Source of the DNA: Minisyncoccia bacterium
GTDB taxonomy: Bacteria; Patescibacteriota; Minisyncoccia; Phycocordibacterales; Phycocordibacteraceae
Direction of reading: 5' to 3'
NCBI GenBank assembly: GCA_050011835.1
Contig: JBEKII010000003.1
Coordinates: 39,842-103,841 of the forward strand
Length of the DNA: 64,000 nt
Below, piece by piece: positions 2,748-29,011 of this stretch; the first letter of the stretch is position 1; each line of letters starts with the position of its first letter. The position numbers were made by a program, and so were the translations under genes. The notes beneath the pieces were generated by a model that was given only the letters and a program-made list of their open reading frames with translations, was not told the DNA's origin and searched no databases.

Positions 2748-2759
2748 TATACTTGACCC

Positions 2760-2915: not shown

Positions 2916-2934
2916 GATTTTGTTATACTAAAGC

Positions 2935-4674
2935 GTGATGGAAAATCCCGAGCGCGTGACGTACTTCGCGGCAACTGACAGCCGCGGGAAGTTTGTTCCT
3001 TTCGGCATCAAAGCGAAGGATCGCGACCGCCATATGTACGTTATCGGCAAAACCGGTATGGGCAAGTCAACCTTGCTGGAGAACATGGCGATTCAAGACC
3101 TTCGCAATGGTGAAGGATTCGCCTTCATTGATCCGCACGGAGGAACGGTTGACCGATTACTTGATTATATTCCCGAAAATCGCGTGAAGGATGTCGTCTA
3201 CTTCGCACCGTTTGATATGGAACATCCCATCGCGTTTAACGTGATGGAAGATGTTGGCTATGACAGGCGTCATCTCGTGGTGAGCGGTCTCATGGCGACT
3301 TTCAAGAAGATATGGGAGGACGCATGGAGCGCACGTATGGAATACATCCTCACGAATACGCTTCTCGCGCTCCTGGAATATCCGGATGCGACTTTGCTCG
3401 GTGTGAATCGCATGTATACCGATAAAGAATACCGGCGAAAGGTTGTTGATAATGTGAAAGATCCAGTTGTAAGAGATTTTTGGACAAAAGAATTCGCCAT
3501 TTATACCGACCGCTATACCCAGGAAGCGACTCCCGCCATTCAGAACAAGGTCGGCCAATTTACCGGCAATCCGCTTATCAGGAATATCATCGGTCAATCG
3601 AAATCTTCGTTTGATATTCGCACGATGATGGACGAAAAAAAAATTCTCATCATTAATCTTTCTAAAGGTCTCGTGGGAGAAACCAACATGCGTCTTTTAG
3701 GTTCTATGCTTACCACACGCATTTTCCTTTCTGCGATGAGTCGCGCGAACGTGCCCGCAGAAGGACTCGCGAAGCTTCCTAACTTTTATTTCTATGTTGA
3801 TGAATTCCAGAATTTTGCGAACGAGACGTTCGCAGAAATTCTTTCCGAGGCGCGCAAATACAAATTGAATCTAGTTATTGCGCATCAGTACATAGAGCAA
3901 ATGGAAGAAGAAGTGCGTGATGCTGTTTTCGGCAATGTCGGTACGACCGTTGTCTTCCGCGTTGGACCTTTTGATGCCGAAGTATTGGAAACTATCTTTA
4001 TGCCGAAATTTACAAAGGAGGATTTGGTAACACTTGATCGCCGGCAGGTCTATCTCACGCTCATGATAGACGGAGTCGGGTCAGCGCCATTTTCCGCGAT
4101 TACTATCCCGCCAATAGAAGCGCCGCCGACATCCTATCGCGGGCAAGTTGTCACTTCTTCGCGTGCGCAATTTACCGCGCCGCGTGCGGAAATAGAGAAC
4201 GCCATTATGAAAGAATTCGCGGCAAGTCTCGCGTCCGCTGTTCCTTCGGACGCGCGTGCGAAGCGTCGTCCAATGGCCATCCCGCAAGATAAAAATACGC
4301 AGCCACCGAACGTCTCGCAAAGATCTTCGAACCTACCTGCCTCTAACGGAGCCAGGCCATTCGTTCATCGTTCACCGACTGCGCCTCCAGTTACGTCAGC
4401 TAAAAGTGCAGATGATTTGAAGTCAATCTTGCGCACTGTGGTCACAAAGACTGGAGCAGAAAAAGAAGAGAAACAATTGCAGAACAAGCAGTCGCTCAAA
4501 GAAACTCTCGCGAACGTGTTAGCACGAAGCGGACAACCAATAATAAACAATGAATTGCCAAAGCAGCCGGAGCGCTCTGCAGCAACGACTCCACCGCAGG
4601 AACCACCGCAGAAAAAGCAACCCTTTGAAGTTCCTGAAAATGCGCTCCAGAAGGTACTGAAGGGCGAAACCTAA
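2935..4674 (+). CDS. FtsK/HerA/TraD-VirD4-like P-loop ATPase (type IV secretion coupling-protein-like DNA-binding ATPase domain) with a Pro/Gln-rich disordered C-terminal tail
   Basis: Walker A VIGKTGMGKST. Walker B-like DEFQNF followed by LVIAHQ, as in TraD/TraG/VirD4-like ATPases. The last ~170 aa are low-complexity P/Q/S/A-rich. Confidence 0.6.
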   Translation: MMENPERVTYFAATDSRGKFVPFGIKAKDRDRHMYVIGKTGMGKSTLLENMAIQDLRNGEGFAFIDPHGGTVDRLLDYIPENRVKDVVYFAPFDMEHPIAFNVMEDVGYDRRHLVVSGLMATFKKIWEDAWSARMEYILTNTLLALLEYPDATLLGVNRMYTDKEYRRKVVDNVKDPVVRDFWTKEFAIYTDRYTQEATPAIQNKVGQFTGNPLIRNIIGQSKSSFDIRTMMDEKKILIINLSKGLVGETNMRLLGSMLTTRIFLSAMSRANVPAEGLAKLPNFYFYVDEFQNFANETFAEILSEARKYKLNLVIAHQYIEQMEEEVRDAVFGNVGTTVVFRVGPFDAEVLETIFMPKFTKEDLVTLDRRQVYLTLMIDGVGSAPFSAITIPPIEAPPTSYRGQVVTSSRAQFTAPRAEIENAIMKEFAASLASAVPSDARAKRRPMAIPQDKNTQPPNVSQRSSNLPASNGARPFVHRSPTAPPVTSAKSADDLKSILRTVVTKTGAEKEEKQLQNKQSLKETLANVLARSGQPIINNELPKQPERSAATTPPQEPPQKKQPFEVPENALQKVLKGET

Positions 4675-7393: not shown

Positions 7394-8508
7394 AAGTCCT
7401 TTTCATATCCAATGACCCGAATATCTTTGACGCGGCGAGCGCCGTACGCATGCGTATGCGCACGTATGCCGCAGCGCTGAGGGAATTGCACATTCTTTCT
7501 CATGCGAATCGGGACGCGCATGAAGAAAAAGAAGAAAACCTCTTTCTGCATCCCGTGCACACGTCAAAATTATTCAGAACGCGCGCGCTCTCCGCGCGTG
7601 CGCATGCACTTGTCCTCGAGAACGCCATAGACATTGTCTCCGCGCAGGACCCTTTTGAGCATGGGCTCGCCGCTTTGCGCGCGATACGCGGCACGCCTGC
7701 GAAACTGCATGTGCAGGTGCATACCGACTTCCTTTCTCCATGGTTCGTGAACTGCGGCGTACGCATGTCTCTTCTGAATCGCTATCGTCGTCGCCTCGCT
7801 GACCGCGTTTTGCCCGCGGCGGCGGGGATTCGTGTCGTCTCGCAGCGGATAAAGGACTCGCTGATTGCGCGATACCATTTGCGCATTCCCAAACCGTCGG
7901 TCATCCCGATAGCCGTGAGCGGGACGCTGCCTTCTCCCGTGCCTTTGCCCGCGCATTCGTTCACGTTCACGCTTATCGCGGTCGGCCGATTGGAACCCGA
8001 GAAACGCGTTGAAGATATTTTTATCGCGCTCAAGCATATCGCCAAACAATATTCGATGGTCGGCCTTTTCGTCGTCGGAGAAGGTCGTTCGGGTGCGCGG
8101 CTCAAGCAAACGGCGCATTCCCTCGGGCTCGCGGATAGAATTATATTTCTCGGCGACCGCTCTGACGCGTGGGGATTGATGCGAAGCGCGCAGGCATTTA
8201 TTCAAGCGAGCGCGTATGAGGGCTACGGCCGCACGCTTGTTGAAGCGGCGCTCGCCCGCGTGCCGATTATCACCACCGATGTCGGTATTGTCGGCGATGT
8301 GTTCAAGAGTTATGAAGATGTCCTCTCCTCGCCCGTTGGCGACCCGATGGCGCTTGCGCGCAACATCACCAAATGCATTGAGGATGCCATGATGCGGTAT
8401 AAACTGCCGATGCATGCCGAGACCGTGGCGCGCGCACATCTCGCATCACAAGGGAATTTTGCAGAGCGCATACGGGACGATCTTATGCGTACATTTCAGA
8501 GCGTATGA
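7390..8508 (+). CDS. Glycosyltransferase family 4-like
   Basis: EGYGRTLVEAALARVPIITTDVGIVGDVF GT4-type motif. 4-nt ATGA overlap with the upstream gene. Confidence 0.7.
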   Translation: MKVLFISNDPNIFDAASAVRMRMRTYAAALRELHILSHANRDAHEEKEENLFLHPVHTSKLFRTRALSARAHALVLENAIDIVSAQDPFEHGLAALRAIRGTPAKLHVQVHTDFLSPWFVNCGVRMSLLNRYRRRLADRVLPAAAGIRVVSQRIKDSLIARYHLRIPKPSVIPIAVSGTLPSPVPLPAHSFTFTLIAVGRLEPEKRVEDIFIALKHIAKQYSMVGLFVVGEGRSGARLKQTAHSLGLADRIIFLGDRSDAWGLMRSAQAFIQASAYEGYGRTLVEAALARVPIITTDVGIVGDVFKSYEDVLSSPVGDPMALARNITKCIEDAMMRYKLPMHAETVARAHLASQGNFAERIRDDLMRTFQSV

Positions 8509-9590
8509 CAAAACAAGTTATCGTTTGCTTTTTTGGATACGACGAACGTGATGAGAGCGGGCGGACGTGGGCGATACGGACTGGATTGGCGGAAAATGAC
8601 GTTACGGTAAAGCCCTGCCGAACGCTCGTCGACGGATTTTTTGCGAAATATCATGACTTGTACCAAAAATGGAAAGGTATCACCGGAAATATTGATGCAC
8701 TCTATGTGATTTTTATGGGCTATTATCTCATGCCGCTTGCGTGGTGTCTCGCGCGCCGGCGGGGAATTCCCGTAATCCTCGACACGCTCATATCGCAATA
8801 CGATACCGAAGTCACTGACCGAAAACGTATATCTCGTTTCAGTCCGCATGCGTGGTTTTTATGGGGAGTCGACTGGGTATCCTGTGCCGTAGCCGATGCG
8901 ATAGTTGTCGACACGCACGAACATAAAAAATTTTTTACTGAAAAATTTTTCGTTAATGCGAAAAAAATACTCGTTGTTCCCGTCGGATGCCGTTCCGATC
9001 TTTTTATACCGCTTCCTCATTTGAGGGAATCGGAAGGTTATTTTATTGTTGAATTTCATGGGTCGTTTATTCCGTTGCATGGCATCGAGTACATCATGGA
9101 AGCGGCAAAAATCCTGCAGGAGAAGCACGAAAAGGTTCATTTCAAGATCGTCGGCATGGGGCAATTGTTCGTTGCAATTACATCAATGGCCCAGAAGCTT
9201 CGACTATTCAATGTTGAATTTCTCGGCAGGGAACCGCTCAAAGAGCTCCCTTATTCCATTGCTCGCGGCGATGTGAGCCTCGGCATATTCGGGGCGACTC
9301 CCAAAGCCCTGCGCGTTATTCCGAATAAAGTCTATGAGTCTCTCAGTTGTGGAAAACCGGTGATTACCGAGCGATCGCCGGCGGCGCTTGAAGTACTGCA
9401 CGATTACGAAGGGGTATGTATGGTGGAGCCGGGTAATGGCGTTGCTCTCGCGGAAAAAATTCTTGAACTGAAATGCGATGTAGTCCTACGCACCCAGCTT
9501 AGTGAACGCGCCCGCGCAATTTCATTGAATCAGTTTTCTCCACGCGCGATCGCGAAGCCTCTGGTAGACTGGCTCAAATCACACGCATGA
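8505..9590 (+). CDS. Glycosyltransferase, GT-B fold (GT4-like)
   Basis: SLSCGKPVITERSPAALEVL C-terminal GT-B motif. ATGA overlap with neighbours on both sides. Confidence 0.55.
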   Translation: MTKQVIVCFFGYDERDESGRTWAIRTGLAENDVTVKPCRTLVDGFFAKYHDLYQKWKGITGNIDALYVIFMGYYLMPLAWCLARRRGIPVILDTLISQYDTEVTDRKRISRFSPHAWFLWGVDWVSCAVADAIVVDTHEHKKFFTEKFFVNAKKILVVPVGCRSDLFIPLPHLRESEGYFIVEFHGSFIPLHGIEYIMEAAKILQEKHEKVHFKIVGMGQLFVAITSMAQKLRLFNVEFLGREPLKELPYSIARGDVSLGIFGATPKALRVIPNKVYESLSCGKPVITERSPAALEVLHDYEGVCMVEPGNGVALAEKILELKCDVVLRTQLSERARAISLNQFSPRAIAKPLVDWLKSHA

Positions 9591-10612
9591 AATTACTAAT
9601 TGTCACGCAGGTAGTTGATCAAACCCATTCTAATATGGCGCTCATACACCGGTGGATAGGGGAATTCGCCAAACACTGCGAGCAGGTCTCGGTCATATGT
9701 CTCTACGAAGGTGAACATTCCTTACCCAAAAACGTACACGTCTATTCACTTGGTAAGGAGCGCGGTCGTCTTCCGCGATTTCGCTACGCATTACGTTTTT
9801 GGAACTATCTTTGGAAACTCAGACATGAATACGATACGGTGTTTGTGCACATGAATCCTGAGTATATTCTACTTGGAGGTTTCATATGGCGAATGTCTGG
9901 CAGAAAAATTGCACTCTGGTACACGCACAAGAGCGTCGATCTAAAATTGCGTATCGGAACTTTCTTGGCGAATGTTATTTTTTCCGCTTCACGCGAGAGT
10001 TTCAGACTCCCCACGAAAAAACTCCGCATTATGGGACACGGGATTGATACCGAACTATTTGCTCCCCAGGCACTTCATATAGAGGATCTCAATATCATAA
10101 CGGTGAGCCGCATCACCAAATCAAAACGTCTTATTGAAATGCTCTTCGCGCTCGATGTGCTATATACCCGAGGTATCCCATTTCAGTTCTCTATCATTGG
10201 CGCGCCGATTTTCGAACATGATAAAGCATATGAAAAGGAGATACAGCGCGAAATTGCTCGCAGACCATATGCAAGCGATGTTCATTTCATTGGCATGGTG
10301 CCGTACCGGGAATTGCCGAATGCTCTTGGTCGCGGGTCTGTTTTCATCAATCTGAGTAAAACAGGCAGTATTGACCGCGCGGTCCTTGAAGCGATGTCCA
10401 TTGGCCTTGCGCCGGTAACCTCGAATGAAGCATTTCGCGAGATGCTCACACCTTTTGGATTGTATGTGAAGGAGGACAGTCCTAAGTGTATTGCCGATAC
10501 GCTGGTGCATGCTAAAAACGTTGATCGCGCGGAACTTTCTCGGTATGTTAGAGAATACCATTCGCTTCAGCGTCTTATTCCCGCGATGTTTGATATCATG
10601 CGAGCACCATGA
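9587..10612 (+). CDS. Glycosyltransferase, GT-B fold (GT4-like)
   Basis: EAMSIGLAPVTSNEAFREML motif. ATGA overlaps. Confidence 0.55.
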   Translation: MKLLIVTQVVDQTHSNMALIHRWIGEFAKHCEQVSVICLYEGEHSLPKNVHVYSLGKERGRLPRFRYALRFWNYLWKLRHEYDTVFVHMNPEYILLGGFIWRMSGRKIALWYTHKSVDLKLRIGTFLANVIFSASRESFRLPTKKLRIMGHGIDTELFAPQALHIEDLNIITVSRITKSKRLIEMLFALDVLYTRGIPFQFSIIGAPIFEHDKAYEKEIQREIARRPYASDVHFIGMVPYRELPNALGRGSVFINLSKTGSIDRAVLEAMSIGLAPVTSNEAFREMLTPFGLYVKEDSPKCIADTLVHAKNVDRAELSRYVREYHSLQRLIPAMFDIMRAP

Positions 10613-11770: not shown

Positions 11771-11960
11771 TGACCTGGACCCCGTATCTTAGACACATGG
11801 TCGAAATTAATAGCACACTAACCACATGAACAACAAAGGACACAAAGTCTCAGCGGACGTGAAGTCGGATATCATCCGCAGAATCAGAGAGGAGGGAGTA
11901 CCTGTGGCACAGGCGGCCAAGGAGCACGGCCTGCACGAGTCCACCATATACCTATGGCTC
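11771..11960 (+). mobile_element. IS3-family (IS2-like) insertion sequence remnant: left inverted repeat plus 5' fragment of orfA
   Basis: TGACCTGGACCCCGTATCTTAGACAC at 11771 resembles the IS2 left IR (..GACTGGCCCCCTGAATCTCCAGACA..). The downstream ORF N-terminus matches IS3-family OrfA HTH. No orfB or right IR follows. Confidence 0.5.
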
Positions 11961-12038
11961 GGTACCGGAGCGCAGGGAGCACCAACCTTCTCAGAGTTCG
12001 CTCGCATCCGCTTTCGGTATTCTCAAGAATTGAAGTGA
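11826..12038 (+). pseudogene. Truncated IS3-family transposase OrfA (HTH domain only, 70 codons)
   Basis: KVSADVKSDIIRRIREEGVPVAQAAKEHGLHESTIYLWL parallels IS2/IS150 OrfA (..[34 protein letters not shown]..). Similarity is lost after ~45 aa. Confidence 0.5.
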
Positions 12039-12051
12039 ATTCGAATGTCAG

Positions 12052-12090
12052 GGCCGTTAGCCGATCAATCGGCTAACGGCCTTGTTTTTT
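12052..12090 (+). terminator. Rho-independent terminator
   Basis: GC-rich hairpin GCCGTTAGCCGA-tcaa-TCGGCTAACGGC followed by CTTGTTTTTT. Confidence 0.7.
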
Positions 12091-12110: not shown

Positions 12111-12857
12111 TTAACGAGGCATTTTCTTGAAATCTCCGCGACTAAAATATCGCTCAATAAGGCAATATAAAAGTATAAACAAATATCGGCTACCCATTTC
12201 CTTGATTTTGAGTTTTGAGGCCCCGCTCTTGCGATTGCGCCACGAATTGGGAAGCACGGTATACGTATACCCGCGTACGATGGTCTTCAGCGGCAGTTCG
12301 AGCGTGAGGTTGAAGTGGGGTGCGAGAAACGGGCGCAACCCATCAAGCGCCTCTCGTTTATAAAGTTTGAACGCATTTGTGCAATCGTTATAGCGGATTT
12401 GAAAGAGCAGACGTACGAGCGTGTTAGCAAAACGGTTGAGTAGTAATTTGTGTCGGGGATATCCATACGTTGTGCCTCCTGGTATGAAACGGCTACCGAA
12501 CACGCAATCAACTCCGGTCTCCTGTGCTACGCGATAATATCGCACAAGATCCTCCGGGTCGTCTGAAAGGTCGGCCATCATCATAGCGATATACATTCCA
12601 TGTGCCGCGTTGATACCGCTCACAATTGTTCTGCCGTATCCGGGCGGCTGTTCGTTATGTACGATGCGCAATTGCGGTATACATTGCGCGAGTCCCGTTA
12701 GTATCGTCGCCGTAGTATCTGCTGAATGGTCATTTACTACAATGACTTCAAATGAAATATGTTCTCGTACAAGCACGGTCGCTACCGATTCTACGGTCTC
12801 GCGGATGGACCCTTCTTCGTTATGGGCAGGGATGACGACGCTAAGCGCTGTTTGCAT
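12111..12857 (-). CDS. GT2 polyprenol-phosphate glycosyltransferase (GtrB / dolichol-phosphate mannosyltransferase-like)
   Basis: VVIPAHNEEGSI, VVNDHSAD, D-x-D region and a C-terminal TM helix. 248 aa. Confidence 0.8.
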   Translation of the reverse strand: MQTALSVVIPAHNEEGSIRETVESVATVLVREHISFEVIVVNDHSADTTATILTGLAQCIPQLRIVHNEQPPGYGRTIVSGINAAHGMYIAMMMADLSDDPEDLVRYYRVAQETGVDCVFGSRFIPGGTTYGYPRHKLLLNRFANTLVRLLFQIRYNDCTNAFKLYKREALDGLRPFLAPHFNLTLELPLKTIVRGYTYTVLPNSWRNRKSGASKLKIKEMGSRYLFILLYCLIERYFSRGDFKKMPR

Positions 12858-12903
12858 GCTAGGACTCTAGTATAAACCTGTGTTAGCATAATCGCGACAT
12901 GGT

Positions 12904-13956
12904 ATGGCGAAAGTAGTCCTGATTACGGGTTCTGCGGGACTGATCGGCTCGGAATCGGCCCGTTTTTTTGCTGGGAAAAGGTACCAAATAGTTGGCGTGG
13001 ACAATGACATGCGCAAGTATTATTTTGGCGAAGGCGCAAGCACACAGTGGAACCGAAAACAGCTCGCGAAAGAACTTGGAGCACGGTACCGACACTATGC
13101 TGCGGATATACGAGATCGCGAGCGAATTGAAAGGATCGTTAAAAAATATTCGCCCGATATCGTCATCCACACAGCTGCCCAACCGAGTCACGATTGGGCC
13201 GCGAAAGAGCCGCACACGGATTTTACTGTTAATGCTCTCGGTACGCTCGTGTTGCTTGAAAGCGTCCGGCAATTCGCACCGAGAGCAACGTTCATTTTCA
13301 CCTCAACAAATAAAGTGTACGGCGACCAACCGAACCACCTGCCGCTCATCGAAACCGACACAAGGTGGGAGATCGAACCAAGCCATGCTTTTTACCAAGG
13401 CATCGATGAGTCGATGAGCATCGACCAAACGCTTCACAGTGTTTTTGGAGCTTCCAAAGTTGCCGCCGATGTGATGGTGCAGGAATATGGAAAATATTTC
13501 GGACTAAAGACAGGTGTATTTCGAGGCGGATGTCTTACCGGCCCGAACCACAGTGGCGCGCAACTCCACGGTTTTCTTTCTTATCTGGTGAAGTGTATTG
13601 CTACGGGAGCTCCTTATACTATTTTGGGCTATAAGGGGAAACAGGTACGGGATAATATCCACGCGAGCGATCTTGTGAATATGTTTTGGCATTTCCACCA
13701 AAATCCGCGATCGGGCGAGGTGTATAACGCCGGCGGAGGGCGGCAAGCGAACATCTCTATGCTTGAGGCGATCGCAAAGGTAGAAAAACTCACCGGCAAA
13801 AAAGCGGACATCGTGTATAACGATACACCGCGCGTTGGAGATCATATCTGGTATATTTCCGATCTTAGAAAGTTCAAATCGCACTATCCGAAATGGAATA
13901 TTGTCTACGATATAGATGCGACATTGCGGGACCTGTGCGCACACGTGCGTTCCTAG
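12904..13956 (+). CDS. NAD-dependent epimerase/dehydratase (extended SDR; CDP-paratose 2-epimerase-like)
   Basis: [11 protein letters not shown] Rossmann motif and [15 protein letters not shown] (YxxxK). Confidence 0.75.
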
Positions 13957-13967
13957 CCATATTCTCC

Positions 13968-15044
13968 ATGAAATATCAACATATACTTGTAACAGGCGGA
14001 TGCGGATTCGTCGGTTCTTCTCTCGCATTGCGGCTAAAAGAAAAATTTCCCCAAAGTAGTATTACCGTTGTCGATAATCTTGTACGCAAAGGTTCCGAAC
14101 TTAATAAAGTTCGTTTGCTTAGGGCAGGTGTCGAGTGTCGAGATGGTGACGTGCGATATGCCGAAACGTTCAAACCTCTCGGTTCGGTTGATTTGATTAT
14201 CGATTGTGCCGCAGAGCCGTCGGTGTTGGCGGGGAAAGACGGCTCGCCTCTTTATGTACTTGAAACAAACTTGTGGGGAACGATACATATGCTCGAACTT
14301 GCTCGGCGCACCAATGCGGCTGTGATGTTTCTTTCAACGAGCCGGGTGTATCCGATTCGCGAATTGAATGCGATTAACGTGATCGAAACCGATACGCGAT
14401 TTAGAATAGCTCCTGATCAAATAATGTCGGGCATCACAGAGCGTGGCATAAACGAAGCATTTCCGATGGGTACGGAGCGGACGCTGTATGGCGCTACCAA
14501 ACTTGCTTCAGAAATGTTTATCACGGAATACGCGCTTCTCTATGGCATACGCGCCATCATTAACAGATGTGGAGTTATTGCGGGGCCGTGGCAGTTCGGT
14601 AAGGTTGACCAAGGTATCGCGGTACTTTGGATGGCGCGGCATATATTCCCAAACAAAAAGCTCGCATATGTCGGATGGGGGGGAAAGGGGAAACAGGTAC
14701 GGGATTTTCTTCATCCCGACGACCTATTTAATGCGCTTGCCTATCAGTTGGAGCATTTTGGTGTTCTCGCAGGAAGCGTGTTTAATCTCGGCGGCGGAAC
14801 AGAACGAAGCGTATCGCTTCTTGAACTTACGCGGATATGCGAAAAGATAAGTGGCCGGAGCATCGGCATCGGCTCGATGTCGGAGACCCGCTGGGGAGAT
14901 GTAAAACTCTACATTTCCGACAATGTGCGCTTCGAAAAACTTTCAGGTTGGAGGCCGAAGCGCGACATTGAAACCATCATGGGCGATATTCACGAATGGC
15001 TCATCACTAATAAGGACATGCTGGCGCCCATCTTCGCTACATAA
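13968..15044 (+). CDS. NAD-dependent epimerase/dehydratase (paralog of the upstream gene; CDP-paratose 2-epimerase-like)
   Basis: Start taken at the internal ATG (MKYQHILVTGGCGFVGSSLA). YGATKLASEMFITEY (YxxxK). Overall colinear with the preceding gene. Confidence 0.75.
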   Translation: MKYQHILVTGGCGFVGSSLALRLKEKFPQSSITVVDNLVRKGSELNKVRLLRAGVECRDGDVRYAETFKPLGSVDLIIDCAAEPSVLAGKDGSPLYVLETNLWGTIHMLELARRTNAAVMFLSTSRVYPIRELNAINVIETDTRFRIAPDQIMSGITERGINEAFPMGTERTLYGATKLASEMFITEYALLYGIRAIINRCGVIAGPWQFGKVDQGIAVLWMARHIFPNKKLAYVGWGGKGKQVRDFLHPDDLFNALAYQLEHFGVLAGSVFNLGGGTERSVSLLELTRICEKISGRSIGIGSMSETRWGDVKLYISDNVRFEKLSGWRPKRDIETIMGDIHEWLITNKDMLAPIFAT

Positions 15045-15048
15045 TAAT

Positions 15049-16833
15049 ATGAGTATGACTAAAGCAAAAAGATTTTTTCAGCAGCATCGTCCCGCTGTCG
15101 TGCTCATGGTCATTATTCTCGTGCTCACTACGATTCCGGTTATTGATACGTTTCTCGTTCTCGGAAATGCCTGGCAAGGATTTCCCCCGTCCTTCGGTGA
15201 CGAGACCATGTATTTCGCGCACATGCATACCATAGCGGAAGGATATGTGAACGACGGGAATCCCTATTTTTTGGAACACCGCAATGACCCTCCGCTAGTC
15301 ATTTTCGGAGGAGCCTGGTTGAACGCAGTGCCACTTCTTGCCGGCATCCCGTTTGATGCGGCGCTGATGTTCAATTTCATCATCTGGAGTTTGGCGTTCG
15401 CCGCACTTTTCTATTGGCTGTTTCGAGAATGGAGGGTACCGCGGTGGATCGCCGTAGCCAGCACGGTGTTTCTATATCTGCAATCGTATGAGCACGTGTG
15501 GCGGGCAGTGAATCTTCAGACGGTATATCCGTTCTTTTTCTTGTTTCTCATCGCACTTACCCGTTTTCTCCGTGAACGAAGTCGCAAGAACATAGGACTG
15601 CTCGCGGCGGCGACAGCTCTTTCGTTTTACTTTTTCTCATATTTATGGCAGACGGTCGTCATCACACTCGGGATTCTGGCACTTTATGCTCTGGTAAGAA
15701 AAAATTGGAAATTGCTGAAAGCGACGCTCCTTTCGTCAATCATCGGGGGTATTATCGGTCTACCTGTACCGCTCCTCATGCTCTGGCTTTCCCGTTCTTC
15801 GCCGTATTTTTGGGAAAGTATCGGTCGTCTCGGGCTCGTGAATACGCATCTACCCATGGCCGAAGTTGTGTATTCTGGCGGATGGATCGGCGTCGCGCTC
15901 GCTTTTCTCGCACTGCTCTATTGGCGCATGCGAACACTGCGAAAGGATACGGAATTCATGTCGCTATTTCTATTCCTCGGTATAAGCGGTTTAGGCATCT
16001 GGATTATGCAAGGCAGCAACCTCATCACCGGCAAATTGCTCGAGACGGGAGAGCATATGCGGGCATTTATCGCTCCGTGGCTCGTATTCGCCACCGTGCT
16101 TCTGGGAATATATCTCTACAAGCGGCGCGCGCAGCTTACGCGAAAATGGCGATGGTTTTCGGTGATTGTCATTGCGGCGTGTTCAATTGCGAGCATTCTT
16201 TTCTTCAATCTCTACGGTCCTTTTATTAATCCAGAAACAAATAGTGAGTTCTGGTACACCGAGCAGTTATATGTCAAACCTCTCGCATGGCTTGACAAAA
16301 CAGAAAAAAATCCAGTTGTCGTGTGGAGCGACCCGGTCAACGATGAGATTACGGGCGTCCTTCCTGTGTTTACCAAACACTTTACGCTTTTTACGACCGC
16401 CGCGACATGGGAATTGGTGTCTGAAAGCGAAATTCGCGAGCGGTATCTTATTTCGCAATATTTTAACAATCCGACCGTTGACTCTCTTAAAGCCAATATG
16501 TCGGTCTATCTTGGGCGACAGGATGCGTATCATCGCGCCGCGACAATTGACCGTAGCGTAAAGATTTGTCGCACAATGTACTTTTGGGACAAAAATAAGA
16601 ATTGCGGCATACTTCTTACTCCGGCGGAATTGCTCGGCGATAAATTTTTTGCCAATCTTGAGCAAGAATTTCAAACCGATATCAAGCCAAACATAAAAAT
16701 GTATTTGAAAAAATATCACGTCTCCTACATCCTTAAAGACGATATCCTTGATCCGCAGTATCATCCTGAAAAATTGGGCGCCATGCGTGTCTACAACGAC
16801 GGCCGCTTTGAGATTTATCGGGTGCAGTATTAA
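15049..16833 (+). CDS. Polytopic membrane protein with C-terminal soluble domain; putative GT-C-type membrane glycosyltransferase
   Basis: Start at the internal ATG (MSMTKAKRFF). About 10 predicted hydrophobic segments over the first ~430 aa are followed by a ~160 aa hydrophilic tail. Sits among GtrA/GtrB-like genes. Confidence 0.4.
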   Translation: MSMTKAKRFFQQHRPAVVLMVIILVLTTIPVIDTFLVLGNAWQGFPPSFGDETMYFAHMHTIAEGYVNDGNPYFLEHRNDPPLVIFGGAWLNAVPLLAGIPFDAALMFNFIIWSLAFAALFYWLFREWRVPRWIAVASTVFLYLQSYEHVWRAVNLQTVYPFFFLFLIALTRFLRERSRKNIGLLAAATALSFYFFSYLWQTVVITLGILALYALVRKNWKLLKATLLSSIIGGIIGLPVPLLMLWLSRSSPYFWESIGRLGLVNTHLPMAEVVYSGGWIGVALAFLALLYWRMRTLRKDTEFMSLFLFLGISGLGIWIMQGSNLITGKLLETGEHMRAFIAPWLVFATVLLGIYLYKRRAQLTRKWRWFSVIVIAACSIASILFFNLYGPFINPETNSEFWYTEQLYVKPLAWLDKTEKNPVVVWSDPVNDEITGVLPVFTKHFTLFTTAATWELVSESEIRERYLISQYFNNPTVDSLKANMSVYLGRQDAYHRAATIDRSVKICRTMYFWDKNKNCGILLTPAELLGDKFFANLEQEFQTDIKPNIKMYLKKYHVSYILKDDILDPQYHPEKLGAMRVYNDGRFEIYRVQY

Positions 16834-17306
16834 TTTTCGCGCGCGGGTAAAGAAGGGGGGATGTGTCGCCAAACGAAAAGAAGATAGAACGTATAATTCC
16901 ACGCGAATCCAAGGATGATGCCAGCTGCATAGGCAACATGGATGATGAGAACATTGCTTGTCTGATGTTCAGCTATAAATACGAATAGCCATTGCAGGAA
17001 GACGGAACCGCTCACGACGAGGTGGAAACGTATGAGGCGCGAAAGAAGCGAAAGATTATGTCGCCGATCATGGAAGACAAAACGGTTGCTGATATAGAAA
17101 TTAGTTAAGATGGCACACTCCGCGCCAATCACGACCGCAGTGCTGGGGGAAAACACATGCAGATAGATACCGAGGATTTCAAATATCGTGGTCTGCACGA
17201 TAACCGCAATGACTCCTGTCGCGAGAGAGCGCACGAGGCGCGAATTCGCTATTGTCTTACAAAACTGTGCTATCGCTTTTTGCATGAATTGCACATATCT
17301 TATCAT
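16830..17306 (-). CDS. GtrA-family polysaccharide biosynthesis/translocation protein
   Basis: RLVRSLATGVIAVIVQTTIFEILGIYL and YISNRFVFHD match the GtrA family (F-x-x-V-G...NR-x-W-x-F type motifs). Four predicted TM helices, 158 aa. Confidence 0.7.
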   Translation of the reverse strand: MIRYVQFMQKAIAQFCKTIANSRLVRSLATGVIAVIVQTTIFEILGIYLHVFSPSTAVVIGAECAILTNFYISNRFVFHDRRHNLSLLSRLIRFHLVVSGSVFLQWLFVFIAEHQTSNVLIIHVAYAAGIILGFAWNYTFYLLFVWRHIPPSLPAREN

Positions 17307-17323
17307 GACGTAGAATTTAACCC

Positions 17324-18706
17324 ATGTCTTTTATACGGGCGCATAAAATAGAAATCGGGATTTTCATACTGGCTCTTGTACTTCGTTTTTTGTATCTTGA
17401 TGCGAGCATTGCGCACTATGGCGGCGTATTGACTGATGCGATACACGGAGCAGATGGATATTTCGAAGTGAGTCACAACCTCATCATTGGGCACGGGTTT
17501 ACGCAATCTCAAAGTCCACCATACATCCCGTACTCATTTCGTCCGCCTCTCTTTTTCTATTTTATCTATTGGTTCCACACTCTTTTCAATGGTTACTGGG
17601 GCGTCATTATTCTTCAAATGATACTGGGAAGCGCTCTGCCCATTATAGGGATGAAGCTTGCGTCGTATGCACTGAACTCTCGCAAACTCATCATAACCAT
17701 CGGACTGCTCCTTGCTCTTGACCCGCAAGGGATTTTATACTCAACATTTTTTTACAGCGAGATTTTGTTTATATTCCTCTTCTTTCTCTCGCTCCTCTAC
17801 CTGTTTCGGTATAGTAAAAAGAAAAATTTCTATGACCTTATTATTTCCGGAGGCGTGCTCGGGCTTGCATGCCTGACCAGACCGGCAATTGAATATCTGC
17901 CCATCATTATTGCCGCGTGTCTTCTGTGGGATGCCCGGGAATACCTGTCAAAAAAGTTTTTCTTGCACGTTGGCACATACCTTCTGGTGTTTGCCGCGGT
18001 GATTTCGCCGTGGATATATCGAAATTATGTGACATTTGGCGTTGCGGACTTGAGCCCGCAATTAGGAGTGAATTTATATGCGGTGCTTTTACCGTCGGTA
18101 CTTGCTGTTGAGCATGGCACGAGCTGGCAACAAGAATTCGCCATCTTAACGCGCGCAGGAGTACAGGGTCCCAACGTGGCCGATATCACGAAAGGTGGTG
18201 AATATACCAAACTCGCACTACCGCTTCTCTTGGCGCATCCCAAAGCGCTCGCGATTGTAGAGGCCGATACCGCCGTGAGTTTTTTCACGAGCGACGGCGT
18301 ACTTGATACGTTACGGCATATCGGGGCCTCAACGAATCTTCGCTTGGGTGAGCCGGCCCTCTTCATGCTTCTTTCTTCTCCACGCACTCTCTTTTGGTTT
18401 ATCGCGCAGGTAGCGATGACTCCGACGATTTTCGTTCTGTTCGGGCGAATATTCTGGTTCCTCGCGACGGGGATGTTTTTATATGGGGCATGGAGATATT
18501 TGCGGCGGGAACCCCGCAATCTTTCCGCGCTTATCATGATTGCGGTTGTTTTATATTTTGCCTTGACCACGACGCTTGTTTCTGGCTTTGGCATAACGTC
18601 ACGATATCGCCTGCCCGTGAATGTATTCATTCTCGTCTTCGCGGCGTATGCGGTTTCCGTGCTCATCTCCGCTCTGCGCAGGAAGCGACGGGGGGAAAAT
18701 GCGTAA
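17324..18706 (+). CDS. GT-C fold membrane glycosyltransferase (ArnT/PMT-like, GT39/GT83-type)
   Basis: 11-13 predicted TM helices. The N-terminal loop has the Asp-containing motif LYLDASIAHYGGVLTDAIHGADGYFE typical of ArnT/PMT family. Confidence 0.6.
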   Translation: MSFIRAHKIEIGIFILALVLRFLYLDASIAHYGGVLTDAIHGADGYFEVSHNLIIGHGFTQSQSPPYIPYSFRPPLFFYFIYWFHTLFNGYWGVIILQMILGSALPIIGMKLASYALNSRKLIITIGLLLALDPQGILYSTFFYSEILFIFLFFLSLLYLFRYSKKKNFYDLIISGGVLGLACLTRPAIEYLPIIIAACLLWDAREYLSKKFFLHVGTYLLVFAAVISPWIYRNYVTFGVADLSPQLGVNLYAVLLPSVLAVEHGTSWQQEFAILTRAGVQGPNVADITKGGEYTKLALPLLLAHPKALAIVEADTAVSFFTSDGVLDTLRHIGASTNLRLGEPALFMLLSSPRTLFWFIAQVAMTPTIFVLFGRIFWFLATGMFLYGAWRYLRREPRNLSALIMIAVVLYFALTTTLVSGFGITSRYRLPVNVFILVFAAYAVSVLISALRRKRRGENA

Positions 18707-19385
18707 ACTTTCCATCATCATCCCGTGCTATAACGAATCGCGCACAATTGAGGAAATAGTGCGGCGCGTTATTGGTGCGCCCCTGCGGGGCTGGGAACGA
18801 GAAATAATTGTCGTTGATGACGGCTCAACAGATGGCACTCGGAAAATTCTTCAGGTCTTTGGTGCGCCCATAACGTGTATCTTTCAAGAAAAAAATGGTG
18901 GGAAGGGAACTGCGGTACATACCGGTCTCAAGCAGGTGCGCGGGGACTATGTACTCATTCAAGACGCTGACCTCGAATACGATCCAAACGAAATACAGAA
19001 GCTCCTCGCTGTCATCGATAAAGGCGAGGCAGATGTCGTTCATGGTTCGCGTACGCTCATTCGCCAAAAGAAAGAAGGACCGGTAACCTTGCGTCTGGGC
19101 GTATGGTTCCTCACACAAATGGTTAATATACTTTATGGCCTTACGCTGACCGACATATGCACATGCTATAAGCTCTTCCCGCGCGAAGCGGGAGAGGCAT
19201 TTGCCCCCGGAGGATTTGTGTCGGACATACTATTCACCCCCGCTCTGGCTCGCCGCGGGTATCGTTTCGCAGAGGTTCCTATTTCCCATCATCCGCGTTC
19301 GGTCGCGGAAGGGAAAAAGGTTCGTTACCGAGATGGATTTCGTGCGATCGTGGCCGTTGCTACAGACTGGTTCCGCAATCTATGA
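18699..19385 (+). CDS. GT2 polyprenol-phosphate glycosyltransferase (Ppm/DPM1/GtrB-like)
   Basis: Start at the internal ATG (MRKLSIIIPCYNE), overlapping the upstream GT-C gene by 8 nt. IIVVDDGSTDGT and QDADLEYD motifs. Confidence 0.8.
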   Translation: MRKLSIIIPCYNESRTIEEIVRRVIGAPLRGWEREIIVVDDGSTDGTRKILQVFGAPITCIFQEKNGGKGTAVHTGLKQVRGDYVLIQDADLEYDPNEIQKLLAVIDKGEADVVHGSRTLIRQKKEGPVTLRLGVWFLTQMVNILYGLTLTDICTCYKLFPREAGEAFAPGGFVSDILFTPALARRGYRFAEVPISHHPRSVAEGKKVRYRDGFRAIVAVATDWFRNL

Positions 19386-20518
19386 AAATTTATTATATTG
19401 CCAATGCACGAATGCCGACCGAAAAAGCGCATGGCATCCAAATAGCAGAAATGTGTGAGGCCTTCATTGAGGCCGGTGTTGATGTGACACTTATCGTTCC
19501 TCGCCGTACGGCCGATCCTCGTTCGGTGCGTGAGTATTACGGATTGCGTACTGACGTACCGGTACGACGACTTCCCGTGTTGCCGTTTTATAATGGAGAA
19601 CGCGCTGGTTTTTCTATTGCATCACTGTCATTTATGTGTTCGGCGGCAGTGTTTCTGCTCCTACGGCGAGTTAAAAGTAGCAGTGATGTTATCTATACCG
19701 TGGACATGGACACGTTTTCCTTTACGCCCTTGCCATTATTCGGTATGCCCTGTTTTATTGAAATTCATGGGCAGAAACCCTCAACATCCGTGACGCGCTA
19801 CTTCTTCCGCCATGCGCGCGGAGTCATTGTTACCAATACGGAAATAGAACGTGCGATATCGGGCACGTTTAATCTCCCAACACAAAAACTTCTGGTTGAA
19901 CCAAACGGCGCTGACTTGTCGGCATATAAAAATCTGCCGTCAAAAGAAGAAGCGCGCCGGCAATTAGGACTACCATTACATGAACGCACCGCGTTATATA
20001 TTGGTAGATTTTATGAATGGAAAGGCCTTGAGATTCTGCCCGCGGCGGCGCGCCTGCAGCCGGATGTCGCTTGGTACGCAGTCGGCGGCGATGCAAAAGA
20101 ATTTGCCAAAATCTCTGGGGTTTCCGATATTCCCGCGAACATGCATTGTACAGGTTCACGGCCGGCCCAGGAAATTCCTTTGTGGCTCGCGGCAGCGGAT
20201 GTACTGCTTATCCTCGGCACAAAAAATAATATAGATTCGTATCGCTATACTTCACCAATGAAAATATTTGAGTACATGGCGTCATGCCGGCCGGTTGTCG
20301 CGAGCAGGACACCGGCGCTTGCGAGCATCATTCCCGAGAGTGATGTTGTGTGGTATGAACCGGACGACGCGCACGACCTTGCGCGCGTCGTAAACGATGC
20401 GCTCCACGCGCCGAATGACGTTCGTCTCATGCACGCACGGAATATGGCTGAAGCTCACTCATGGGGAAATCGCGCCGCTCGCATTTTGGCTTTTATTGAA
20501 GCGAATTTTTCTCTTTAG
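19382..20518 (+). CDS. Glycosyltransferase family 4-like
   Basis: GT-B fold. C-terminal SPMKIFEYMASCRPVVASRTPALASII motif. ATGA overlap upstream. Confidence 0.6.
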   Translation: MKIYYIANARMPTEKAHGIQIAEMCEAFIEAGVDVTLIVPRRTADPRSVREYYGLRTDVPVRRLPVLPFYNGERAGFSIASLSFMCSAAVFLLLRRVKSSSDVIYTVDMDTFSFTPLPLFGMPCFIEIHGQKPSTSVTRYFFRHARGVIVTNTEIERAISGTFNLPTQKLLVEPNGADLSAYKNLPSKEEARRQLGLPLHERTALYIGRFYEWKGLEILPAAARLQPDVAWYAVGGDAKEFAKISGVSDIPANMHCTGSRPAQEIPLWLAAADVLLILGTKNNIDSYRYTSPMKIFEYMASCRPVVASRTPALASIIPESDVVWYEPDDAHDLARVVNDALHAPNDVRLMHARNMAEAHSWGNRAARILAFIEANFSL

Positions 20519-21095: not shown

Positions 21096-21719
21096 ATGGC
21101 TTTTATGCGACAGAACGACCTCTGGACCCCAGCTCTCTATACGTTTCGAGGGTTTGTGCAGGAAAATATTCTCAATTCCGCACAGGCGCTTGATATCGGA
21201 TGCGGAAACCGCAAACTTCCCGGGGCGGTAGGCATTGATAAGCTCGCGCTTTCGTTAGTGGATGTCGTGCATGATTTGTCTGTATTCCCATGGCCGTTCG
21301 CGGATAATAGCTTTGACCTAGTGTTTGCGAATCATTTTTTAGAGCACGCGGACGATGTCCTTCGCACGATGGAAGAAATCAACCGCGTTCTTGCTCCTGG
21401 TGGGCGCGTGGTAATCCAAGTGCCATATTTTCGCTGTGTCGATGCATACACTGACCCCACGCACAAACATTTTTTCGCTTCACAAACGCTCGATTATTGC
21501 ATTGCCGATACGCGAATATCCGCGTATGCCTATACGCCTGCGCGTTTTATCAAGCGGGGTTTCTGGTTCGGCTGGCCGCACTCTTCCCGCAATCCGCTCA
21601 AACAACTCCTTAAATCGTTTATCACTTCGCACGCGTCCTTCTATGACCAATATCTTTCCCTTCTTTTTCCTGTTAAGTGTCTTACCTGGGAGTTGGAATC
21701 AATAAAAAAGCGTATATGA
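21096..21719 (+). CDS. Class I SAM-dependent methyltransferase
   Basis: Motif I ALDIGCGN and motif post-I/II, Methyltransf_11/23-like. 207 aa. Confidence 0.75.
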   Translation: MAFMRQNDLWTPALYTFRGFVQENILNSAQALDIGCGNRKLPGAVGIDKLALSLVDVVHDLSVFPWPFADNSFDLVFANHFLEHADDVLRTMEEINRVLAPGGRVVIQVPYFRCVDAYTDPTHKHFFASQTLDYCIADTRISAYAYTPARFIKRGFWFGWPHSSRNPLKQLLKSFITSHASFYDQYLSLLFPVKCLTWELESIKKRI

Positions 21720-22762
21720 TCGTACGCAAGGCGCTTACATTTCGCGCTTCTTCCATCGGTGACTGCCTGATGGGGAAGTATCTTCTGGAAAATATTCATG
21801 CGCAATTCCCCGAGGCGCGCCTCGGGCTCGTGGTGGCAAACCGTGCAGGAATGATTCGCGATCTTCTCGCGGCATACCCATGGCTAGAAATTATTGAAGC
21901 GAATCGCCGTAGTCCGAAAGCGCTTCTTTCATTGTGGAAAAATTTTCACGGGAGCGATCTCGTGGTGACGCAATATGCTGGCAAGCAAGGCGGAAGTTTT
22001 GGTTTCGCGAGCAAGCTTGCTGCTCGGATGCTCGCTAAACGCGGAGGCCTCGTCGGATTTACTGATGCATCAAAGTGGAATGGGATACTTTACGATCAGC
22101 TGTTGTCCGCGCGTTCCGATATAGCAGTTGCTGACCATGAACGCGGGGCCTTGCGTGCGGCGGGACTGCCGATGTCTCTCCCATTCCCTGCATTAGAATT
22201 TGTGCGAGATAATACGGCACGTACTAAATTCAATCTGGAAACAGGGAAATTTATTATCGTCCATCTTTTTGCAGGTAATTCGGGTCGCGGACTGCATCCG
22301 GATAAAAAACGCGAACTACTCAATATACTTGCTGAAAAACTTCCCCGCATTCGTCTGGTAATAAGTGGCGGCACGAATGATCAGGAAGAAGCACTGCGTA
22401 TAGCGGAGAGCATTCCCGCGACTGTTATTGCAGGCAAAACAACACTCCAGGAACTCATGAATTTAATTTTTGAAAGCCGCGGGGTTGTCAGTGTTGATAC
22501 CGGAGTAGCGCACATCGCTGCGCAGCTTGGCAAACCACTTATTGTCATGCGTACTTGCCTCGGACGTAGTTGGTGGCTTCCGAAACAATATGGGGAAGAA
22601 GCACCCGTCACGGTTTTTTCTCGCGACGATCTCTGTAACGCCGGCCACATTTATAAAGATTTTCCCGATTGTATCAATGCAATTTCTATTGATGAGCTTG
22701 TTTCGGTTTTGCAACTCCAGCGAATTGCAAGTGGCGTGCATCTGAAAGCAGGCCAAGAGTGA
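21716..22762 (+). CDS. Glycosyltransferase family 9 (ADP-heptose:LPS heptosyltransferase family)
   Basis: Start at the internal ATG (MIVRKALTF) with ATGA overlap. GT9 signature VDTGVAHIAAQLGKPLIVM and N-terminal SSIGDCLM. Confidence 0.7.
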   Translation: MIVRKALTFRASSIGDCLMGKYLLENIHAQFPEARLGLVVANRAGMIRDLLAAYPWLEIIEANRRSPKALLSLWKNFHGSDLVVTQYAGKQGGSFGFASKLAARMLAKRGGLVGFTDASKWNGILYDQLLSARSDIAVADHERGALRAAGLPMSLPFPALEFVRDNTARTKFNLETGKFIIVHLFAGNSGRGLHPDKKRELLNILAEKLPRIRLVISGGTNDQEEALRIAESIPATVIAGKTTLQELMNLIFESRGVVSVDTGVAHIAAQLGKPLIVMRTCLGRSWWLPKQYGEEAPVTVFSRDDLCNAGHIYKDFPDCINAISIDELVSVLQLQRIASGVHLKAGQE

Positions 22763-28109: not shown

Positions 28110-28120
28110 ACATATGCACC

Positions 28121-28996: not shown

Positions 28997-29011
28997 ATTG
29001 AAATATAAAAT

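Follow-up and report, generated by a model that had tools for sequence, protein, structure and literature searches.

Does this stretch of DNA encode enzyme sets able to charge a membrane lipid with a sugar and hand that sugar on to a target outside the cell? The window, i.e. the whole stretch analysed, covers 64,000 nucleotides of a contig from a Minisyncoccia bacterium, a member of the Patescibacteria (candidate phyla radiation), and we consider it fairly probable that two such sets are encoded there. The five open reading frames described in the initial annotation are all present at the coordinates listed below, and a separate gene call on the source contig concurs. That annotation had left out two SDR genes (12904-15044), which together with the first GT2 gene make up a conserved cassette.

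12049..12084, unstranded: hairpin with T-run, probable terminator (perfect 16-bp stem), closing the left edge of the module
12111..12857, minus strand: GT2_1, predicted polyprenyl-phosphate glycosyltransferase, catalytic domain only, 248 aa (Pfam PF00535, E 9e-30)
12904..13956, plus strand: SDR1, extended SDR resembling CDP-tyvelose 2-epimerase (Pfam Epimerase, E 1e-42)
13968..15044, plus strand: SDR2, second tyvelose-epimerase-like SDR (Pfam Epimerase, E 7e-31)
15049..16833, plus strand: X594, polytopic protein of predicted GT-C fold, 594 aa (fold, fusions, synteny)
16830..17306, minus strand: GtrA-family small membrane protein (Pfam PF04138, 55.6 bits vs. cut-off 26.1)
17324..18706, plus strand: PMT2, PMT_2-family (GT39/83-like) GT-C glycosyltransferase, 460 aa (Pfam PF13231, 48.2 bits vs. 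cut-off 26.1)
18699..19385, plus strand: GT2_2, predicted polyprenyl-phosphate glycosyltransferase, 228 aa (Pfam PF00535, E 1e-35)
19382..20518, plus strand: GT4-family cytoplasmic glycosyltransferase, associated gene (Pfam Glycos_transf_1, Glyco_transf_4)

In module A, GT2_1 is transcribed leftward and SDR1, SDR2 and X594 follow one another rightward. The two SDR genes are situated between GT2_1 and X594 and are operonic with X594, the SDR2 stop codon being 4 nt upstream of the X594 start. The X594 and GtrA genes are convergent, with stop codons overlapping by 4 nt. The hairpin, in which 10 of the 16 pairs are G-C and the T-run is on the plus strand, sits between the end of another GT4 gene (11643) and the 3' end of GT2_1 (12111). 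In module B, PMT2 precedes GT2_2 and overlaps it by 8 nt (18699-18706), as previously described. The GT4 gene that follows overlaps GT2_2 by 4 nt and is found downstream of X594 in most related loci.

Both modules appear to use one common GtrA protein, whose family assignment was borne out by Pfam. Its true start is more likely Met8 (17285), given the JGI gene call (a 151-aa product) and the N-termini of homologues, which align with Met8. The divergent spacer would therefore be 38 nt and not 17, and the earlier argument that a gap of about 17 bp places the promoters inside coding sequence depends on a start codon that is in doubt. The region has fewer promoter-like matches than chance predicts (7 found vs. 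12.8 expected).

The nearest solved relatives of GT2_1 are the P. furiosus Dol-P-Man synthase (PfDPMS; E 1.4e-15, residues 4-222), GtrB sll0501 and ArnC; those of GT2_2 are ArnC (5e-19, residues 2-206), PfDPMS and GtrB. For both proteins the alignment spans the whole catalytic domain. Their description as GtrB-like holds in that they are closest to solved polyprenyl-phosphate glycosyltransferases, but they lack the two C-terminal TM helices of GtrB and CsbB: topology prediction found no TM helix in either, and no hydrophobic segment at all in GT2_1. The top NCBIfam match of GT2_2, AglJ (1e-28), is under the cut-off, as is its match to the PpgS model (2e-13). Because both GT2s score far under every NCBIfam equivalog cut-off, we infer their lipid acceptor and sugar.

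Natural fusions among the relatives of X594 comprise five GtrA-X594, four GT2-X594 and one methyltransferase-X594. In 25 of the 29 related loci, X594 has a GT2 or GtrA gene no more than 1.2 kb away, and in 16 of the 29 a GT2 gene is at most 300 bp away, often with overlapping stop and start codons. GtrA is inside the ±8 kb flanks of X594 in only 16 of these 29 loci. The order GT2_1-SDR1-SDR2-X594-GtrA is retained in L018/L019, and L001 has the same genes but with GtrA upstream of X594. At least three GT2 groups, non-orthologous and about 25% identical to one another, are found paired with X594 orthologues, and the pairing of GT2_1 with X594 is therefore not universal. An overlapping PMT_2/GT2 pair was found again in L018/L019 and L025, in agreement with the initial proposal of a synthase feeding a transferase. 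Moreover, a GtrA domain is fused to a PMT_2 protein in L033.

This context bears on an alternative in which GT2_1 and GT2_2 are ordinary cytoplasmic Leloir glycosyltransferases extending a lipid-linked repeat unit, the GT-C donors coming from elsewhere and adjacency reflecting membership of one glycan island. The lack of TM helices, the low equivalog scores and an island full of other glycosyltransferases would fit it. However, TM-less short GT2s making polyprenyl-phosphate sugars are known (GacI, PpgS), and the closest solved structures are specifically DPMS, ArnC and GtrB. The four GT2-X594 fusions are independent, and these, the short GT2-X594 distances and the recurrent PMT2/GT2_2 type of overlap also argue against this alternative, which we judge unlikely. 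We retain both GT2s as predicted polyprenyl-phosphate glycosyltransferases.

X594 has more than 230 homologues and matches no Pfam or NCBIfam family, including the models that cover YfhO and the Gtr-type transferases. As judged from sequence, it is an undescribed, widespread family covered by no protein-family library. Of the families initially suggested for the polytopic proteins, PMT_2 applies to PMT2, whose homologues are labelled GT39 or ArnT-like in the sources, whereas X594 is by sequence none of PMT, PMT_2, ArnT or YfhO; its profile comparison with the PMT_2 protein is weak (hhalign probability 22%). X594 is predicted to have about 11 TM helices and a soluble tail of 206 aa; its C-terminal outer domain (residues ~392-594) is STT3/AglB-like. 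Because a cytoplasmic GT2 is joined to the N-terminus in the GT2-X594 fusions, this terminus should be inside the cell and loop 1 outside. The C-terminal domain matches the outer domains of AglB, STT3, DPY19, AftA and AftD, although the fold call comes from structure prediction, and the matched structures reach TM-scores of only 0.4-0.5 at 8-14% identity. Assignment of X594 to the GT-C type is supported by this modelled fold, gene fusions and synteny, so that the view of both polytopic proteins as GT-C-type stands. Neither is transporter-like: the sole such match, to LrgB, covers 60 residues at 19.8 bits, below the cut-off of 25.

A conserved Asp, the absence of which from the first outer loop had been named as grounds for rejection, is present in both proteins. 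In PMT2, Asp44 and Tyr46 of this loop are invariant, and across the X594 family conservation peaks in outer loop 1 (D51, Y55, G65, N71, P72, E76). Two further conserved outer loops of X594, modelled with low confidence (266-276 and 323-334), are reminiscent of the mobile catalytic loops found in GT-C enzymes. Conservation reaches at least 95% for E76, R260 and H336 and 87-94% for R152 and Q157; N324 and E332 are also conserved. Such polar and charged outer-loop residues would be the pattern expected of a phosphate- and sugar-binding active site. The C-terminal tail also has two conserved cysteines, Cys507 and Cys519, which would be compatible with a disulfide provided that this tail is outside the membrane. 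The strong conservation of the outer-loop residues argues against X594 being a non-catalytic GT-C-fold scaffold or substrate-binding subunit (cf. PIG-U/GAB1 of the GPI transamidase), or a polymerase or ligase. So does an orthologue identity of 53-68%, above that of most neighbours compared (PMT2 and the GT4 gene 19382-20518), and fusion to donor-making enzymes argues for catalysis. We regard a role of this kind as very improbable.

The fold matches could also be read as those of an OST-type enzyme (STT3/AglB/PglB), X594 then moving onto protein a pre-assembled pyrophosphate-linked glycan, built by the GT4 enzymes of the island and its ABC exporter, instead of a single sugar from a polyprenyl monophosphate. 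The whole-length Foldseek matches of X594 are headed by STT3, PglB and DPY19, its C-terminal domain is nearest to the globular domains of AglB and STT3, and many GT4s as well as an ABC exporter are encoded in the surrounding glycan island. Yet this C-terminal fold is shared by DPY19, AftA and AftD, enzymes whose donors are monophosphates. The WWDYG signature is absent from X594, the equivalent position reading VVVWSDP, where the Trp occurs in only about half of the family and the Asp position is N, D, P or S. Furthermore, X594 is fused to or adjoins DPMS-like GT2s and GtrA, which handle monophosphate-linked single sugars, and a Wzy_C-TPR ligase-like protein of the island (46128-48365) could already perform en-bloc transfer. 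The OST-type explanation has, in our view, little probability, and we keep X594 as a putative single-sugar transferase.

The top PDB match of both SDR1 (7e-46) and SDR2 (3e-36) is CDP-tyvelose 2-epimerase. In SDR1, Phe181 replaces the catalytic Tyr (FGASK aligned to the YGCSK of the enzyme), and 82 of 83 homologues carry Phe at this position, while SDR2 keeps a canonical YxxxK motif (YGATK). SDR1-SDR2-GT2_1 is a widespread, conserved three-gene cassette. In metagenome contigs it adjoins other GT-C-type or unknown polytopic proteins, and X594 was found in none of the 80 metagenome SDR1 loci.

Two modules based on polyprenyl-phosphate-linked sugars, apparently sharing one GtrA, thus probably glycosylate targets outside the cytoplasmic membrane. 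In module A, one or both SDRs would tailor the sugar, either on the nucleotide sugar or on the lipid-linked sugar, for which DprE1/E2 is a precedent. GT2_1 would put the monosaccharide on polyprenyl phosphate at the inner membrane face; GtrA, the predicted flippase or membrane partner for the polyprenyl-phosphate sugar, would flip it and/or dock the soluble GT2. X594, a GT-C enzyme whose acidic active-site loop would be on the outer side of the membrane, would then pass the sugar to an extracytoplasmic acceptor, probably held by the STT3-like C-terminal domain. In module B, GT2_2 would make a second lipid-linked sugar and PMT2 transfer it to another site or acceptor. The modules differ in GT2 and GT-C families, and the earlier suggestion that two sets imply two sugar additions is a reasonable reading. 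What the analysis shows are the family or fold assignments, topology, conserved residues, gene fusions and synteny; we infer the lipid carrier, which donor goes with which acceptor, the flipping, and both the direction and the order of the SDR step. Since a DPMS-like GT2 and GtrA are used here, a hexose-type sugar is more likely. The acceptor might be a surface glycopolymer, or else a pilin or S-layer protein, made by the surrounding 5-48 kb glycan island.

The proposed mechanism is an already known three-component scheme, shared with GtrA/GtrB/Gtr(type) O-antigen glucosylation (Shigella, Salmonella phages) and CsbB/GtcA/YfhO teichoic-acid glycosylation. In these systems, synthesis of the polyprenyl-phosphate sugar falls to a GT2, its handling across the membrane to a GtrA-family protein and the transfer outside to a polytopic GT-C protein. 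The GtrA found here is a bona fide PF04138 member, as in the Gtr scheme, but module A differs by its two built-in SDR genes. Compared with Ppm1/Pmt O-mannosylation (actinobacteria, yeast PMT) and DPY19 C-mannosylation, X594 lacks a MIR domain and any Pfam PMT/PMT_2 match, and its sequence identity is 8-14%.

GT2_1 and GT2_2 are catalytic-domain-only, like GacI, PpgS or Ppm1-D2. [quoted passage not shown] The small partner, which in GacI/GacJ stimulates the short GT2 (bioRxiv 10.1101/180810), is there a DUF2304 protein (GacJ, Rv3632) and here GtrA. GacK is a Wzx-type flippase; neither a DUF2304 nor a Wzx gene was seen in the module. The type-III PfDPMS, whose catalytic domain aligns with GT2_1, has a GtrA-like TM domain proposed to flip the product, although GtrA proteins reportedly lack the polar-pocket motifs of DPMS (PMC12992685). 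A GT2 with a separate GtrA looks like such an enzyme split into two genes, GtrA here not adjoining GT2_1.

The GT136 pentofuranose system of C. youngae (ORF12-15) supplements the three components with an auxiliary SDR epimerase in the cytoplasm, on which the identity of the added sugar depends. Its GT-C protein, the family founder, was recognised by fold and not by sequence; it contains 11 TM helices and an extra C-terminal outer domain, and its catalytic Asp is located in the post-TM1 loop (PMC11127046). The X594 module is alike in its fold-recognised new GT-C family, ~11 TM helices and auxiliary SDRs, and ORF13 is a precedent for SDR action on a lipid-linked sugar. The GT136 lipid donor depends on a phosphoribosyl-type synthase and MATE flipping, against a DPMS-like GT2 and GtrA here, and its C-terminal domain is a beta-rich CBM, whereas that of X594 is STT3-like alpha/beta.

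All five genes reported in the initial annotation are present, in the same order as in the JGI call of the 118.8-kb contig, and the 8-nt overlap that it described between the PMT_2 gene and the second GT2 gene is correct. However, it omitted two SDR genes located between the first GT2 gene and the first polytopic gene. The complete set is as follows.

Genes of the two putative modules, with coordinates in the window
12111-12857, minus strand: GT2_1, glycosyltransferase of Pfam GT2
12904-13956, plus strand: SDR1, SDR gene closest to CDP-tyvelose 2-epimerase
13968-15044, plus strand: SDR2, SDR gene closest to CDP-tyvelose 2-epimerase
15049-16833, plus strand: X594, polytopic protein of 594 aa without any Pfam family
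16830-17306, minus strand: GtrA, Pfam GtrA (PF04138)
17324-18706, plus strand: PMT2, Pfam PMT_2 (PF13231), 48.2 bits against a cut-off of 26.1
18699-19385, plus strand: GT2_2, glycosyltransferase of Pfam GT2

Since the SDR pair lies between GT2_1 and X594, transcription runs leftward for GT2_1, rightward through SDR1, SDR2 and X594, leftward for GtrA, and rightward again through PMT2, GT2_2 and a GT4 gene. The stop codon of SDR2 is 4 nt ahead of the start of X594, and the convergent X594 and GtrA genes overlap by 4 nt. From the JGI call and the N-termini of homologues, the true start of GtrA is probably Met8, at position 17285; the divergent spacer between GtrA and PMT2, first given as about 17 nt, would then be 38 nt. 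A promoter scan found fewer consensus matches in this region than expected by chance (7 vs. 12.8), so the idea that the promoters must lie inside coding sequence is unsupported. Rfam and tRNA scans of the window returned no match. Directly to the left of the GT2_1-SDR cassette, a 70-aa ORF (11826-12038, plus strand), whose only match is a transposase HTH (PF01527, E = 6e-7), is followed by a perfect hairpin with a 16-bp stem (12049-12084). The ORF and hairpin may be a leftover of the event that brought in this cassette.

HMM assignment, which had been proposed as a check for both putative GT-C proteins, separates them: PMT2 passes the gathering threshold of Pfam PMT_2 (PF13231; GT39/GT83-like), while X594 belongs to no Pfam or NCBIfam family. 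No Pfam match was obtained for 35 X594 members at E ≤ 1 or for 10 distant members, the NCBIfam search with X594 returned no family, and X594 did not match PMT_2 (PF13231) even at E ≤ 1. Its alignment with the PMT_2 protein (PMT2) by hhalign reached a probability of 22%, too weak for a claim of sequence homology, and a PDB sequence profile search returned solely a chance match to Nesprin (E = 1.1). One NCBI record labels a homologue of X594 as “DUF2029 domain-containing”, but no such Pfam match was found. The family is nevertheless large. From 1.84 billion cluster representatives (50% identity clusters), the X594 profile retrieved 835 at E ≤ 1e-3 and 207 at E ≤ 1e-30. X594 itself has a counterpart with 100% identity, annotated as hypothetical, in a metagenome-assembled genome of Minisyncoccia (Patescibacteria), its orthologues are 53-68% identical, and all the named members come from Patescibacteria (Kaiserbacteria, Paceibacterota, Parcubacteria, Yanofskybacteria). 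A related genome (L016) encodes two X594 paralogues (2167-3849 and 8001-9773) that share 47% and 60% identity with X594 of the window, and in another (L025, 10286-15940) X594 is accompanied by PMT_2/GT2 pairs at two separate places. Close lineages differ in how many such modules they carry.

By hydropathy, X594 has about 11 TM helices, which also appear in its predicted model, followed by a soluble tail of 206 aa. Four Lys/Arg residues precede TM1, and the N-terminus must be cytoplasmic because natural fusions of GT2 domains to X594 require it. X594 thus has the topology of the GT-C superfamily (8-13 TM helices, cytoplasmic N-terminus). It also has the conserved acidic residue of the first outer loop: Asp51 is invariant in 35 close relatives and kept in 87 of 109 sequences (80%) of a diverse set built on 108 representatives with a median identity of 28%. 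The first outer loop is the most conserved region of the family. In the diverse set, the best-conserved positions include Y55, G65, N71, P72 and E76 (the last at ≥95%), all in this loop, together with R260, H336 and R465. The initial annotation would have been contradicted by the lack of a conserved Asp-containing loop or by membership of a transporter family. We looked at both points and neither speaks against X594, because the loop 1 Asp is conserved and the match to the transporter family LrgB, which spans 60 residues, is below threshold; a transporter identity was rejected on this basis.

In its AlphaFold model, built from 35 sequences (mean pLDDT 80, pTM 0.82), X594 has the three-dimensional GT-C fold, with an alpha/beta C-terminal globular domain of STT3 type. 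In a Foldseek search with this model, all 12 matches at E ≤ 0.001 were STT3, DPY19, PglB or AftA. Segments 266-276 and 323-334 contain many invariant residues yet have a pLDDT below 50, a behaviour that matches the outer loops of GT-C enzymes, which are mobile. Several of these structural neighbours are OSTs. The WWDYG motif, which in OSTs (GT66) opens the C-terminal domain, is absent from X594. VVVWSDP stands in its place; of 109 sequences, 57 retain Trp426, while residue 428 varies (N in 37, D in 35, P in 11). Membership of the STT3/AglB/PglB group was therefore rejected, and an OST-type role is unlikely, because the motif is missing and the partners of X594 are monophosphate-sugar enzymes.

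These partners are visible in gene fusions and in gene neighbourhoods. Among 10 X594 members with N-terminal extensions (nine cluster representatives and P0087, a relative from the first homologue search), the extension is a GtrA domain in five, a GT2 in four and a methyltransferase in one. Likewise, a GT2 or GtrA gene occurs within 1.2 kb of X594 in 25 of 29 genome loci, with a GT2 gene within 300 bp in 16 of them. The adjoining GT2s, all without TM helices, form at least three groups that are mutually only about 25% identical, and one of these groups shares 84% identity with the GT2 that is fused in P0087. One conserved GT-C is thus combined with different donor synthases depending on the lineage. 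The GT2_1-SDR1-SDR2 set takes this place in the window and likewise in the related loci L001 and L018/L019. From fusions and synteny, we infer that the donor of X594 would be a lipid-phosphate-linked sugar.

The closest PDB relative of both SDR1 (7e-46) and SDR2 (3e-36) is CDP-tyvelose 2-epimerase. SDR1 possesses the TGxxGxxG Gly motif of extended SDRs but reads FGASK where this enzyme has the catalytic YGCSK, whereas SDR2 retains the Tyr (YGATK). Phe181, which replaces the catalytic Tyr of YxxxK, is found in 82 of 83 SDR1 homologues (including loci L001, L018 and L031-L110), although conservation of the protein itself is 63-88%. SDR1 is very abundant: all of the 8,000 candidates scored are matches at E ≤ 1e-50, so that 8,000 is a minimum. 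From 80 metagenome loci with SDR1, about 36 have an adjoining SDR2 homologue and 23 a GT2_1 homologue (52-63% identical), and none carries X594 or a close PMT2 homologue. That the SDR1 cassette always travels with X594 was therefore rejected. Its neighbours in these loci are instead a GtrA-PMT_2 fusion, PMT_2-like proteins, Wzy_C-TPR proteins and several polytopic proteins without Pfam match. Because it is found next to such varied polytopic proteins and never next to X594 in the metagenome loci, the GT2_1-SDR1-SDR2 cassette looks like a portable donor-synthesis unit serving different outer transferases.

Both GT2 proteins possess the catalytic domain of the GtrB/CsbB/ArnC type. GT2_1 aligns with the catalytic domain of the P. 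furiosus Dol-P-Man synthase (PfDPMS; E = 1.4e-15, residues 4-222) and also matches GtrB and ArnC; GT2_2 aligns with ArnC (E = 5e-19, residues 2-206) and also matches DPMS and GtrB. The C-terminal TM anchor of this type is absent from both, the maximum 19-residue hydropathy being 1.17 and 1.29. Their best NCBIfam scores are far below the equivalog cut-offs (AglJ, 100 bits vs. 325; ArnC, 69 vs. 529), and neither PpgS nor DPhHxTase is reached, so that no equivalog can be assigned and the sugar cannot be named. GtrA scores 55.6 bits against a cut-off of 26.1 for PF04138 and, with 151-158 aa and four hydrophobic stretches, corresponds to this family (about 4 TM helices, about 120-150 aa). In PMT2, Asp44 and Tyr46 are invariant in the first outer loop; a PDB sequence profile search for the PMT_2 family found nothing. 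The overlapping PMT2/GT2 pair is also present in L018/L019 and L025.

These genes form part of a much larger island for surface glycans, which spans roughly the 5-48 kb interval of the window. Its content includes nine or more GT4 genes and a single GT9-like gene, several methyltransferases and hexapeptide acetyltransferases, and a nonulosonic-acid set (PseB-like dehydratase, DegT aminotransferase, cytidylyltransferase, NeuB). Two further genes lie at its right end.

Export and candidate transfer genes of the island
44057-46162, plus strand: ABC exporter, just ahead of the Wzy_C-TPR gene
46128-48365, plus strand: O-antigen ligase-like protein (Wzy_C) that ends in TPR repeats, following the ABC exporter

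The Wzy_C-TPR protein is a candidate for en-bloc glycan transfer; such proteins also adjoin SDR1 homologues in two metagenome loci (L032 and L034). To our knowledge, the phylum Patescibacteria is generally thought to be without lipopolysaccharide. The GT9 gene of this Patescibacteria genome (LPS heptosyltransferase-like; 21677-22762, plus strand; PF01075 in the JGI annotation) is kept downstream of X594 in many related loci, with 44-68% identity. A low-GC patch (28001-30300; 0.39 vs. about 0.49) may have been acquired separately; it encodes a methyltransferase as well as a DUF4910/DUF2172/HTH_47 protein, and the nonulosonic-acid genes begin shortly downstream. Moreover, a seemingly intact integrase/transposase of the rve family, with HTH domains at its N-terminus (37295-38254, minus strand), is found inside the island, and a TraD/VirD4-like type IV coupling protein (TrwB_AAD_bind, TraG-D_C; 2935-4674, plus strand) just upstream of the island.

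The best-supported reading is that of two polyprenyl-phosphate-sugar modules. It builds on what was observed: the fold or family of each protein, membrane topology, residue conservation, gene fusions and synteny. GT2_1, with the SDRs, would supply X594, GT2_2 would supply PMT2, and the single GtrA would be common to both; the lipid carrier, these pairings and the steps of flipping and SDR action are what we infer. A broader reading, taken as a whole, seems improbable to us. X594 would found a new GT-C family, near-core in a large clade of Patescibacteria and seen so far only there; with its STT3/DPY19-like outer domain, it would add a single lipid-delivered sugar to protein (e.g. pilin or S-layer), as a bacterial counterpart of eukaryotic PMT/DPY19 mono-glycosylation. 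In this genome, the donor would come from a cassette not described before, whose Tyr-less SDR would cooperate with the canonical one in C2 epimerisation of the sugar; the two might form a DprE1/DprE2-like oxidase/reductase pair working on the lipid-linked sugar.

Patescibacteria represent a very large and mostly uncultured share of bacterial diversity, and, as far as we know, the chemistry of their cell envelope is almost unknown. With 835 clusters at 50% identity and orthologues 53-68% identical, X594 is a concrete starting point for studying surface display in this phylum, whose surface likely matters for host attachment. The GtrA-GT-C and GT2-GT-C fusions bear on the role of GtrA, as a flippase or as an adaptor handing the donor directly to the transferase. 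In addition, the occurrence of the Tyr-less SDR, SDR and GT2 cassette across many metagenome contigs points to an unstudied tailoring step of lipid-linked sugars. If the system performs ordinary side-chain glucosylation or mannosylation, its value would be mainly better annotation.

The three-component scheme itself is already known. What appears to be new is a GT-C family that has an STT3-like outer domain and is covered by neither Pfam nor NCBIfam, the natural fusion of members of this family to GtrA or GT2 domains, and the cassette associating a Tyr-less SDR, an SDR and a GT2. Our literature search on Patescibacteria with GT-C, GtrA, OST or tyvelose epimerase, whose coverage is incomplete, retrieved no earlier account, which does not prove novelty. 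An auxiliary SDR epimerase fixing the sugar in such three-component systems has a published precedent (PMC11127046). Short GT2s without TM helices that make polyprenyl-phosphate-sugars with a small membrane partner are also known, in GacI/GacJ (bioRxiv 10.1101/180810) and PpgS/Rv3632; in those systems the small partner is a DUF2304 protein, whereas here it would be GtrA. Furthermore, type-III DPMS has a GtrA-like TM domain (PMC12992685), so that the combination of GT2 and GtrA found here resembles a split DPMS.
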